A DNA stretch of 64,000 nucleotides from Amoebidium appalachense (taxonomy: Eukaryota; Protista; Ichthyosporea). A program made the translations under genes and the position numbers. The stretch lies in NCBI GenBank assembly GCA_963693365.1, contig CAVNZM010000012.1, positions 5,136,409 to 5,200,408 of the forward strand, in the 5' to 3' direction. The notes under the pieces are model-generated. The model was not told the origin of the DNA. It did no database searches and was given only the letters and a program-made list of their open reading frames with translations. Shown in pieces: positions 93-63,593 of this stretch (position 1 is its first letter; every line of letters starts with the position of its first letter).

Positions 93-15323
<15,231 letters not shown>

Positions 15324-16666: not shown

Positions 16667-17786
16667 ACAAACAAACATTGTACGTCATGCACTTACTTGA
16701 CACCAGCCCATGGCCGTGGTACATTGTTAAACGGTACATCACTGCCTGGTCGCTTCACGGTGTTGGAACCCCCCCCCCCCCCCCCCATTCCCCTCCCCAA
16801 TCACACACACACACCACCACCACCACCTCCTCCACCATTCCTGTGACAACTCCTCCCCGCCCTTTGCAATTGGTGGGATCCCTCCGAATCCCTCGCTCCC
16901 TTCCGGGGTAAGTGGGCCCTCGTCACCATGTACATGTATGGTTGGGGTTTCACATTACACATTGAATCCAACACATGGGCCTTCCGGTTTCGTTTCACAT
17001 AGCCGAGGTACTATACGTAGCTGCCTGTACATGTGTAGAGGCTGGCCTAGTATACAAGAGCACGTGTGGCTTCTACATGTACATACATGGCTATGATTAT
17101 TTCCTAACACGTACTGACGTGTTGCCGCACGTGCGACGTTATACATCTACTCAGGCGGCTTTTAAGTATAAAAAAAAAAAAAAAAGAAAAAAAAGAAAGG
17201 AGACACCGCCTCAGTAGGTGGTAGGATTATTTCTTGCCGCACGTGAAGATATTGTTTACATTCCATTCGGTTTGCGCAATCATGGATTACGTAACCACTT
17301 TTGCCCAACGTTACGGTTCGCACCAACAACCAAAACAAACAAAAACTTCGCGGTCCGGTTCTTTGTATGTACATATGTTTGTACCTGCAAAAAAAAGGGC
17401 ACTCCATGTGTGCAAAAAGGCAGAAAAGAAGAAAAAATCGCGTTTTGATTTTTTCCCCCCCCCTCTCTTCCCTTGTATACTCCTACAGCCCAGTAGCCGC
17501 TTCATGGTAATTCTTGACCCGCCCCACTGTTGGGGGTCCACCAGCATTTCCCTTAATAATGTCCCGTTCACTTGCTCCCCCTTCCCCCCTCCCCCACCCC
17601 CCCCCTCCCTCTTCTCTTCCGGTCGCCCTAACCCTTCCTCCTCCTTACTTCCCCCTACTCTTTTTTTATAAAGCTTCTGTTAAGAGTGACTACGAAGGAT
17701 CTACAACCCGATTACTAATATAACCTTTGCCATCTAACATGCCTTGTTTCCTTACTTCCAGGTCACCTCCCTGCCCACACTTCACC

Positions 17787-18458
17787 ATGGATCTACCACC
17801 CACCCTTCACTCCTTCCCCACCATCTGTGGCTACGAGAAGGAAGTCGCCGCCACCACCCTCCGCCCCCGCCCGCCCACCAGCAACCTCACGCTTGACAAC
17901 TTGACTGCATCCTTCGCCTGTGCCCTTCACATGCACCAACCCATCATCCCTGCCGGGCGGAACGGGGAGCTCATCTCCAACCTTCAACACATGTTCGATT
18001 ATCCGGAGGGAAAAGACAACCACAACGCATCCGTCTTCGCGTGGTGCTATGAGCGCATGGGAACCATCATCCCCCAACTTGTGGACGAAGGTTGCAACCC
18101 ACGCATCATGCTCGACTATTCGGGAAACCTCCTCTGGGGCCTGCAGCAGATGGGACGGGAGGACATCCTGTCGAAGCTTCGAGAAGTCACGTGCAACCCT
18201 AAATATAATAATCACGTGGAGTGGCTGGGGACCATGTGGAGCCATGCCGTTGTGCCATCCACACCCATTCCCGATCTCATGCTGCACATGAGGGCCTGGC
18301 AGACACACTTTGCCTCCATGTTCGGCCTTGAGGCGCTCTCCCGTGTCAAAGGTAGACCCAGGTCCTCCCTCCCCCCTTGCCCCCCCCCACCCACCCACCC
18401 TCCCCCCCCACCCCTCTCCCCCTCCACCTCTCTCCTCTCCTCTCTCTCTCTCTCTCTC

Positions 18459-18507
<49 letters not shown>

Positions 18508-19347
18508 CAGCTACCTCCCGGCCCGGCCCCATCTCAGGCACATAGGCACACACACACCTCACCCGGCCGTCTTTCCTGTGCGCAATCCACCTGCCAAATC
18601 CCCCTCCCCCCTCATTTTTCTTCCCGTTTTGCGCTACTACTTCTCGCTAATCACACCTACCCCCCCTCCCCCCTCCCTCCCCCTTCTCCGCTCCATGTAT
18701 AGCTTTGCTAGTGTTGAGCAATGCGTGTCCTTTCCCTTCCACCCCCTGGCCAGTCTATTTGTGCACATACATATTGTGCCGTGTCTTGTTCTGAATTTGC
18801 GTGCCACGTGTTTTATCCTACCTCCCTACCTCAACACCCCCACGCGTCCTCCACCCAACAACAAACCAACACAGACGTATAAACACCACCTTCCAAGCCA
18901 CACCCAACTCACCTTAACGAAAAAAAAAAAAAACTAACCTTCAACTCGCTCAAACCCCATTCCTTCCCCGCTCCTCCCCCCATTTCCTCCCCCCCTCCCC
19001 CCGCATCCCCTGCTTAAAAAAAAAAATTAAAAACAATGCAGGCTTCTCCCCGCCCGAGATGCACTTCCCCAACCACCCCGACACCCTGTACCAGTACATC
19101 GAGGCACTCAAGCACTGTGGCTATGAGTGGCTGCTAGTCCAAGAGCACTCCGTCACAACCCTTCAGGGCCAACCCCTCCCCGACAGCCAAAAATACGTCC
19201 CTAACGTGCTCACTGCTACAGACTCCAAGGTATTTCCTGTTTCCCTTCTTCTTCTCCTTCTTCATCTACTTCTTTTTTTTTTCTTTCCCGGAATGCAACA
19301 AACAAGAGGTCAAAGGCCGTATCATGGCTATTCTTTGTGCTGTCAGA

Positions 19348-19386
<39 letters not shown>

Positions 19387-19597
19387 CCTTCCCTGCCCTT
19401 TGGGCCTCTGCGGCTGGGGATAGGAGTGAGAGGTACATTAGAGGAGACTAGTGTTGTACTCTTGAGGAAGACTTGGAGAAGGTTGGGGGAATGGGGAGGG
19501 AAGTAGGTGATGTTCCATAAACACCGCCTCCTTATGTTTGCTCAGGGAGAGGGGGGATCTAGCGTTTTCTTTATCCACTGTACAGTTATGTATACAG

Positions 19598-19632
<35 letters not shown>

Positions 19633-20972
19633 TTTCCCGGGGAAAGCTGTTATTACGATGATGATGATACGAAACAGAAACAATAAGATTGACATTAATG
19701 GGGAAATAACAATAGCATAACACTTGAAATATCAAAGAATAATAACAACAACAACAGCAACAGCAGCATTTATATAAACATCAATGACAACCATTGGAAA
19801 TCAAACATAGAAATAATAACTATCCACTCACACCCTGCTCGCACCCAACAACAGGGACGCACCACAACCATCCTTGCCATCATCAAGACTCAGGGCTCAG
19901 ACACAAAACTCGTCGCACAGATGCAGCCCTACCACCAGGCAAAATCCATGCAAAGACCTATGAGAATTGGAAATTTCGAAGTTCCCCCCCTCGTCACCCA
20001 GATCGCAGACGGCGAGAACGGGGGTGTCATGATGAACGAATTTCCGAGAGACTTTCCCCCCATGTGGCAGAGAATGAGGGACGAGGGAAATATGGGGACC
20101 AAGGGGGGCTCAAAGGGGGTGGTGGGGGTCAATGTGTCTGAATATCTCGAGTTGATATTCGGGGCCGGGATAGTCAGAGAGGACCTGCCTGTGTGCATGG
20201 CTGTGGGCCAACACCGCATCTGGGATAAGTCCGTGACCCCCCCCCCCCCCCCCCCCCCCACCCAACCTCCTAACCCCTCCCCCCTCCCTCCCCCTCCCCC
20301 GCCTTTGCCTGAGGATGGGCTCTGGTTTTGGTGCTTACATTCTGTTGTTTCCATGCCATTCTTATTCAGAAACACGTTTTCGTTCTTTATTTCTCACGAC
20401 TTCAGCTTCGTACAGTATAGTAGCTTCCCCCCTCCCCCCCCCCCTTTCTCACCAATCCGATGATATCCTTAATCAGGAACATGTTTTTGTTCTTTGTTTC
20501 TCACGACTTTCACTCCCTACAGTATAGTAGCTTCCCCCCGTCCCCCCCCCCCCCCCCCCCCCCCTCTTCTCAGCAATCCGATGATATCCCGTCACTAAAT
20601 CCCCTCCCACCCACCAGGCTGCAAGGACAGACCATCACCCCCGATAGTGTCGAGAAAGCCATTACCGAGGTGAAGCTGGCCGACCCGAATTTCCACATGG
20701 AGGGGGCTTCATGGACAAACAACATGAGCTGGGTGAAGGGGTACGAGCACGTGCTGGGGCCTATGGCCAAGCTGAGTGCGAAATTTCACGAAAAATGGGA
20801 CGCAAAAATACGGGAAAATGACCGGGATATTACGCGCACTCGGGAGTATGTGGAGTCGTTGGTGTATGTTTTGCTTATGGAGACGAGCTGCTTTAGGTAT
20901 TGGGGGAGTGGGGAGTGGACGGATTACGCTATCGAAATTGCAAGGAGGGGGGAGCTGGTGCTCGAAAAATAG
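17787..20972 (+). CDS. Glycoside hydrolase family 57 protein of bacterial (cyanobacterial/actinobacterial-like) type, ~493 aa, 4 exons
   Basis: Exons 17787-18351, 19042-19229, 19855-20228 and 20618-20972 join in frame (1482 nt) with GT-AG introns. GH57 conserved regions are present: ALHMHQP, VEWLGTMWSHAV, GFSPPEM (nucleophile Glu), IADGENGG (acid/base Asp) and METSCFRYWG. Confidence 0.9.
20307..20428 (+). repeat. Short dispersed repeat (CTGAGGATGGGC family), GH57 intron 3
   Basis: CCTGAGGATGGGCTCTG...CTTCGTAC...Cn. Confidence 0.55.
20365..20590. repeat. Two-copy ~120 bp tandem duplication in GH57 intron 3
   Basis: TTTCTCACGACTT..TACAGTATAGTAGCTTCCCCCC..CAATCCGATGATATCC occurs twice. Confidence 0.8.

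Positions 20973-22943: not shown

Positions 22944-43179
<20,236 letters not shown>

Positions 43180-53372: not shown

Positions 53373-63593
<10,221 letters not shown>

Follow-up and report, generated by a model that had tools for sequence, protein, structure and literature searches.

Alpha-amylases of glycoside hydrolase family 57 (GH57) are described as solely prokaryotic (PMC3499471), GH57 amylases are called solely or mainly prokaryotic (PMC4706583 and PMC11046441), and a survey of 1602 GH57 sequences comprises bacterial and archaeal divisions only (PMC6037648), each in the accessible parts of these papers. Transferred GH57 transcripts have been reported in Orpinomyces anaerobic gut fungi (available portions of bioRxiv 10.1101/487215), and the ichthyosporean Creolimax is credited with 163 genes gained from bacteria by lateral gene transfer (LGT), of which 71 are common to other ichthyosporeans and 102 are intronless (accessible sections of PMC4739763). 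Here we describe a GH57-type gene in a 64,000-nucleotide stretch, referred to below as the window, from the ichthyosporean Amoebidium appalachense (assembly GCA_963693365.1, contig CAVNZM010000012.1, positions 5,136,409 to 5,200,408 of the forward strand), which a sequence-only reading had proposed to be a prokaryote-type gene domesticated after horizontal transfer. On balance, we lean towards a spliced and intact gene of cyanobacterial ancestry that entered Amoebidium independently of the Sphaeroforma and Creolimax copy and encodes a cytosolic retaining hydrolase that would act on glycogen or maltodextrins.

The gene runs from an ATG at 17787 to the end of the stop codon at 20972, and its product has 493 amino acids (aa) and no internal stops; the coding introns follow codons 188, 251, and 375. 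The features of the locus are as follows, with CSR standing for conserved sequence region and UTR for untranslated region.

17389..17506, plus strand: 5' untranslated exon, its start undefined (spliced contigs start at 17389, 17421, and 17434)
17507..17761, plus strand: 5'-UTR intron, GT-AG, 255 nt, spliced in X13, X14, and X8 and retained in X1
17504..17896, plus strand: upstream open reading frame (ORF) of 45 codons, out of frame, which arises by UTR splicing and extends across the main ATG; its own start lies in a weaker context
17787..18351, plus strand: coding exon 1, residues 1-188, with CSR-1 (HMHQP) and CSR-2
18352..19041, plus strand: intron 1, phase 1, 690 nt, GT-AG, with a C-run of 46
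19042..19229, plus strand: coding exon 2, with CSR-3, the predicted nucleophile Glu194 (codon 19056-19058), and an insertion of two residues that cyanobacterial clade 1 also has
19230..19854, plus strand: intron 2, phase 0, 625 nt, GT-AG
19855..20228, plus strand: coding exon 3, with CSR-4, the predicted acid/base Asp303 (codon 20008-20010), and Glu305
20229..20617, plus strand: intron 3, phase 2, 389 nt, GT-AG, with a 17-nt repeat motif at 20308 and a tandem duplication of about 115 nt at 20358-20589
20618..20972, plus strand: coding exon 4, the helical domain with CSR-5, stop TAG

Window sequence is present in 14 public sequencing runs from four studies, none recorded as RNA, and we examined four of them (X1, X8, X13, and X14). 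All four coding exons are joined within single contigs of X13 and X14, which come from the same sample, and of X8, which comes from a different study; these contigs also skip the 5'-UTR intron, so the gene has at least five exons. Contigs of X1, by comparison, cross the intron borders unspliced. The evidence for splicing consists of assembled contigs, which give neither expression level nor transcript ends, and the run types in the record are guesses. X8, although labelled as DNA, contains the form with every intron removed; we read it as a cDNA library, although an intronless DNA copy may be the alternative. That the gene is real and spliced is practically certain. An in-frame upstream ATG at 17406, which would add 42 residues, was set aside because two of the three spliced contigs start downstream of it and X8 has a one-base insertion between the two start codons, although starts cannot be read from contigs. 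Separately, the upstream ORF at 17504-17896, overlapping the main start, could damp GH57 translation.

The sequence-only reading had listed three spliceosomal introns with C-runs and a host repeat. All three are spliced out and each carries C-runs of 23-46 nt, and to them must be added the fourth intron, in the 5' UTR, that had escaped it. The repeat is real, with identical copies at 1804, at 39137 on the reverse strand, and at 63202, but it is short, at 17 nt. Low intron density had been offered as a sign of later acquisition, and the gene does have fewer introns than the host CDC45 gene in the window (3 per 1.48 kb of coding sequence versus 10 per 1.27 kb; Poisson P 0.003). This deficit is real but modest, since the GH57 gene has five exons where the mean over the genome is 7.2 per gene (PMC11244446, accessible text), and the argument is weakened to that extent.

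Assignment of the protein to GH57 follows from its relatives, from motif residues, and from the fold of a proxy, which agree with one another and with the bacterial-type GH57 identity first proposed. The Pfam PF03065 cut-off is reached by 7 of 13 full-length homologues (2/5 and 5/8); the window protein itself was scanned only as single exons, and none of the four gave a GH57 match in Pfam or NCBIfam in that form. Atlas likewise points to PF03065 clusters. As the proxy we folded P0001, the closest homologue (about 66% identical to the window protein), which gave a model with a predicted local distance difference test score (pLDDT) of 92.4. The first ten Foldseek matches of this model are all GH57, headed by the 4-alpha-glucanotransferase 1k1x (E 1.8e-11). 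The top 18 VIA rows are also all GH57 (Z 20.9-26.4), led by the Aquifex amylopullulanase (Z 26.4, root-mean-square deviation 3.0, 325 residues aligned), and the best GH38 match has a Z of 19.9. The window protein is thus predicted to adopt a (beta/alpha)7 barrel with a helical domain.

GH57 enzymes are defined by a Glu at strand beta4, an Asp at strand beta7, and five conserved regions (PMC6037648 and PMC9291813, available sections). We located all five CSR motifs in the window protein by position and pattern. The peptide motifs quoted in the sequence-only reading are all present, with intact catalytic motifs. Glu194 is kept in 331 of 338 aligned rows, Asp303 in 335, and Glu305 in 336. The catalytic residues were placed by motif, and in the P0001 model E205 follows the fourth barrel strand and D313 ends the strand 302-313 (DSSP). 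Glu194 is therefore the predicted nucleophile and Asp303 the predicted acid/base of a double-displacement (retaining) mechanism. The window protein retains 157 of 165 near-invariant columns versus 18 of 94 variable ones, a pattern expected under purifying selection. Its N-terminus aligns with bacterial N-termini and is not hydrophobic, in keeping with the absence of a signal peptide already remarked on, and for this reason the protein would be cytosolic.

Among characterised activities, a GH57 glycogen branching enzyme was considered and rejected, as CSR-1 reads HMHQP and not HxHLP and CSR-4 reads ENGGVM and not ELF(Y)GHW (definition in the accessible part of PMC9291813). CSR fingerprints of the characterised specificities have been published (PMC6037648, available sections). 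The amylopullulanase fingerprint, stated not to be unambiguous, has an aromatic residue at CSR-3 position 12 and ends CSR-5 with Trp-Trp, where the window protein has Ser and Tyr-Trp, respectively; the enzyme may work like an amylopullulanase, though it is not classed as one. Six bacterial relatives (P0126, P0132, P0134, P0138, P0139, and P0142) have an eroded CSR-3, CSR-4, or CSR-5, which suggests that they are inactive 'like' paralogues.

A search with exon 1 returned 3365 relatives; the best 120 are 64-71% identical on that exon, all organism-named ones among them are cyanobacteria, and an Amoebidium GH57 record was not found among these 120. Over the full length, identity to cyanobacterial-type proteins ranges from 57 to about 65%, which together with the tree placement below upholds the cyanobacterial-type subgroup named in the sequence-only reading. 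In GTDB, where 13 of 64 parts were scanned and the best 80 of 600 confirmed loci were taken for neighbourhood and codon analyses, 78 of the 80 are Cyanobacteriota, although the choice of query biases this ranking. Planctomycetota and Anaerolineae have members of the subfamily as well. A single copy is present in each of the five cyanobacterial genomes examined, which makes it improbable that the subclades represent paralogues within one donor. The best 80 of 272 metagenome contigs are 62-74% identical on exon 1 (open frames of at least 486 aa in 72 of them, shorter in eight), and a closer donor was not found among these 80. In one locus labelled Rhizobium sp. (L009), which is possibly a mis-binned contig, a gene matches the cyanobacterial query P0001 at 77%.

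Eukaryotic members came to light in two further ichthyosporeans. A search of representatives returned Sphaeroforma arctica SARC_10123 (P0135), and a search with SARC_10123 then returned Creolimax fragrantissima CFRG1092 along with cyanobacteria. SARC_10123 is already auto-labelled GH57 in UniRef. These two proteins are 68% alike, and each is only 50-52% identical to the Amoebidium protein. They are the only other eukaryotic members identified among the best 120 of 3365 matches, the best 120 of 7945 matches, and 150 of 313 representatives; a homologue from Ichthyophonus or a further ichthyosporean is not among the matches listed, and this listing does not show absence. Amoebidium is a freshwater organism, and Sphaeroforma and Creolimax are marine. 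The transfer proposed at the outset is supported, and it is refined by these two carriers, which apparently represent a separate transfer. A broad eukaryotic clade was not seen.

Trees were built from 338 rows and from subsets of 52, 31, and 32 rows, leaving out proteins shorter than 440 aa or longer than 620 aa and any, P0242 included, in which the CSR-1 pattern is missing. A FastTree analysis (338 rows), C20 quick trees (52 and 31 rows), and a careful LG tree (32 rows, largely different) agree: in all four, the Amoebidium protein falls into one well-supported cyanobacterial clade (clade 1), and Sphaeroforma and Creolimax fall elsewhere. Support for the clade-1 placement is 100/100 with 32 rows under LG+G4 and 98-99 by the Shimodaira-Hasegawa-like approximate likelihood ratio test with 31 and 52 rows under C20. 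The Sphaeroforma and Creolimax pair has a support of 100 and lies in another bacterial subclade. Constraining the eukaryotic sequences to one clade was rejected by the approximately unbiased (AU) test in two runs (48.7 log-likelihood units worse, p-AU 0.011; 43.6 units worse, p-AU 0.017). In placement tests, which are conditioned on a fixed 52-row backbone, 25 of 100 positions for the Amoebidium protein were accepted, all in clade 1, and the position beside Sphaeroforma and Creolimax was rejected (p 0.006). Conversely, 11 of 98 positions for that pair were accepted, all in the other subclade, and the position beside Amoebidium was rejected (p 0.0002). Of 19 columns distinguishing the subclades, Amoebidium has the clade-1 state at 16, and Sphaeroforma and Creolimax have the clade-2 state at 13 each. 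The two-residue insertion is present in Amoebidium and in five of five clade-1 rows shown and is missing in the 11 other bacterial rows shown. A bacterial origin of the window gene is close to certain, its donor very probably belonged to cyanobacterial clade 1, and its acquisition was likely separate from that of the Sphaeroforma and Creolimax copy.

The gene also resembles its host in composition. The G+C content at third codon positions (GC3) is 0.71, compared with 0.66 in the host CDC45 and a median of 0.44 (range 0.27-0.73) in the 80 bacterial loci, and its codon use correlates with that of CDC45 at 0.59 (bacterial loci: median -0.12, best 0.56, which the host value barely exceeds). Codon use hints weakly at amelioration toward the host.

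The commonest bacterial neighbour of the gene is a divergent GT5 glycogen synthase (glgA), which lies within 5 kb at 12 of the 80 loci and spans at least four orders. Taken together, the fold and the glgA neighbour point to glycogen or maltodextrin turnover as the most plausible function, so that an alpha-glucan of this kind is probably the substrate; a storage-glucan role would have the same basis. Opisthokonts normally open stored glycogen via the phosphorylase route. We picture a cyanobacterial gene passing into the Amoebidium lineage and a separate transfer reaching Sphaeroforma and Creolimax. The transferred gene would then have acquired its four spliceosomal introns and a codon use like that of the host while selection retained its active site, and the enzyme may, more speculatively, trim or debranch stored alpha-glucan beside phosphorylase. 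We advance only tentatively the wider proposal that two non-photosynthetic lineages of animal relatives obtained the same uncharacterised glycogen-linked enzyme, each from a different cyanobacterium, and maintained its activity. A bacterial step in storage-glucan turnover would then have been recruited convergently, and a GH57 subfamily with undescribed specificity would gain its first intron-bearing members in eukaryotes.

A number of observations weigh against a separate cyanobacterial acquisition of a glycogen-active enzyme, and they bear on the rival explanations. A single ancient transfer into the ichthyophonid ancestor, followed by fast evolution that moved the Amoebidium copy to a different subclade, would fit the fact that all three eukaryotic carriers found are ichthyosporeans and the sharing of 71 of the 163 Creolimax LGT genes with other members of the group (PMC4739763, accessible sections). 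Both eukaryotic branches are long (0.6-0.9 versus medians of 0.25-0.29), most clade-2 states are outgroup states too, and in one constrained AU test (52 rows, LG, quick search) a single eukaryotic clade was not rejected (36.9 log-likelihood units lower, p-AU 0.18). However, such a history is rejected by the other two constrained tests and by both placement tests, it leaves the 16 clade-1 states and the clade-1 insertion of Amoebidium to be accounted for, and long-branch attraction would unite the eukaryotic rows, not separate them. We regard one transfer as unlikely and judge two to be about four times as likely as one. The donor, in turn, could have been an unsampled bacterium, another eukaryote, or a giant virus carrying a clade-1 gene, given that the subfamily extends to Planctomycetota and Anaerolineae, that the best identity is only about 65%, and that giant-virus DNA is often taken up by Amoebidium (PMC11244446, available text). 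Bacterial rows entered the sampling in order of their similarity to cyanobacterial queries. A cyanobacterial group constrained to exclude the Amoebidium protein was not rejected (p 0.25), nor was one constrained to exclude Sphaeroforma and Creolimax (p 0.59; the constrained tree scored higher); given these non-significant exclusions, a cyanobacterial donor is likely rather than proven, and it is least secure for Sphaeroforma and Creolimax. Set against this are the prevalence of Cyanobacteriota among the best GTDB loci, query-biased as that ranking is, the fact that none of three pattern matches in viral contigs encodes a P0001 relative, and the confinement of all accepted placements to clade-1 rows, whose named members are cyanobacteria. 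A donor other than a cyanobacterium is accordingly improbable, and we retain a clade-1 cyanobacterium.

The transfer could also be real and the enzyme unrelated to glycogen, acting on another small glycoside or binding glucan without cleavage. The subfamily is uncharacterised, the combination of Ser at CSR-3 position 12, an aromatic residue in most characterised specificities, with a Tyr-Trp end of CSR-5 fits no characterised GH57 specificity exactly, and alpha-galactosidases also belong to GH57 (PMC6037648, available sections). The GH57 fold is known from the proxy model and not from the window protein, sequence searches of solved structures gave no GH57 relative, and 68 of the 80 loci are without an adjoining glgA (some loci are cut short), the 12 positive loci being related to one another. 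Against a role away from glycogen, the protein has retained its two catalytic residues as well as the Glu that marks functional GH57 enzymes at CSR-4, no other gene adjoins the bacterial copies nearly as often as glgA, and the top structural matches of the proxy are all alpha-glucan enzymes, so we consider that role not very likely, if somewhat more plausible than a single transfer. Finally, a bacterial gene, or one from another eukaryote, might have been joined into the contig by contamination or misassembly. The gene is linked to its neighbours VPS8 and SMARCC within the window assembly, but public contigs end at C-runs, no read-level bridge to either neighbour was seen, and no contig bridging GH57 to VPS8 or SMARCC was found in the four examined runs. 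Nevertheless, two samples show the removal of four spliceosomal introns, which appear unspliced in X1, and these introns bear the C-runs of the window and the dispersed 17-nt motif, which makes contamination highly improbable and leaves the domesticated cyanobacterial gene as our preferred explanation.

The location between VPS8 and SMARCC, as originally read, holds up in Pfam matches on single exons. These calls come from a Pfam scan of 26 chosen window ORFs, in which most single-exon matches are below the whole-protein cut-off.

9407..10584, plus strand: 3' exons of VPS8, the left neighbour (Pfam TPR_VPS8_2 and zf_RING_Vps8)
25800..42283, minus strand: exons of a SMARCC/SWI3-type gene, the right neighbour, full extent unmapped (Pfam Myb, SWIRM, and SWIRM-assoc_2)
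53373..63592, plus strand: CDC45, 11 exons (Pfam matches at 54.7-60.5 kb; exact match to an Amoebidium parasiticum protein)

Residues 1-423 of the window CDC45 correspond to 11 exact stretches of A. parasiticum P010126 (EukProt EP00123), with residue 303 lying between two stretches. One 41-residue CDC45 exon is 100% identical to this protein and 83% identical to Ichthyophonus hoferi P003482. By these matches the host belongs to Amoebidium, at the level of genus. The window also holds two inverted copies, 97.8% identical, of a 1.46-kb element, one at 39016-40472 (plus strand) in the SMARCC region and one at 61855-63332 (minus strand) in CDC45 intron 10. This is probably a young mobile element; four of its ORFs gave no Pfam match. 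The 17-nt motif of GH57 intron 3 occurs in this element too, as well as in a decayed copy at about 1.8 kb, and resembles part of the hammerhead core of Penelope-type elements; Rfam gave no match across the whole window at gathering scores. In addition, the SMARCC region contains a tandem array of about 4.7 units of about 230 nt (32220-33310; units 92-96% alike) and a direct duplication of about 290 nt (27382-27958; 98% identical) that is either recent or an assembly artefact.

We found no paper joining GH57 with ichthyosporeans in the literature searched, whose coverage leaves out most subscription papers, and none joining Ichthyosporea, horizontal gene transfer, and a glycoside hydrolase. Beyond the gut-fungal transcripts, we came across no previous account of GH57 in a eukaryote in that literature. 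The text examined of an Ichthyosporea review (PMC11286789) contains nothing on glycogen or lateral transfer. Both 'GH57' matches in a Zygnema paper refer to GH5_7 and were discarded. CFRG1092 is absent from three supplements of PMC4739763, the LGT list not being among them, so this Creolimax gene may already figure in that list. No principle is overturned by our case, given that bacterial gene gain is common in ichthyosporeans and that gut fungi are already listed with transferred GH57. A domesticated bacterial carbohydrate enzyme is a known kind of gene; what makes this one of further interest is the probable double capture, together with the uncharacterised subfamily. The window gene, intron-bearing and spliced, offers a clean eukaryotic GH57 case in an animal relative that can be cultured, and with it a way into an enzyme of uncharacterised activity that is widespread among cyanobacteria. 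If the ichthyosporean copies are independent, they would point to a specific selective gain in the stored-carbon handling of coenocytic cells.

Compared with described systems, the Amoebidium protein is nearest to the uncharacterised cyanobacterial GH57 subfamily of about 495 aa (e.g., Alkalinema FACHB-956 P0009 and Microcystis L003), with which it shares length, all five motifs, and the two-residue insertion, but it differs in its gene with four introns, its host-like GC3, and a branch about three times the median. SARC_10123 and CFRG1092, likewise from ichthyosporeans, belong to the same subfamily and have intact catalytic motifs, but they carry insertions of about 50-110 residues and fall into the other bacterial subclade. 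Among enzymes of solved structure, the Aquifex aeolicus GH57 amylopullulanase (PDB: 9kyq and 9ihu) matches the proxy fold at similar length, and the Thermococcus litoralis 4-alpha-glucanotransferase (1k1x) matches it with a Z of 23.2 but has an extra C-terminal part (386-636) that the proxy does not match. Both are only about 16% identical and give no sequence-level match, and the window protein departs from the described fingerprints at CSR-3 and CSR-5. Like the LGT genes of Creolimax and the GH57 of gut fungi, the Amoebidium gene is a metabolic gene of bacterial type that an opisthokont has fixed and expresses; it is set apart by its introns, which 102 of the 163 Creolimax genes lack, by the absence of a signal peptide, by its cyanobacterial affinity, and by an apparent double gain within one class.

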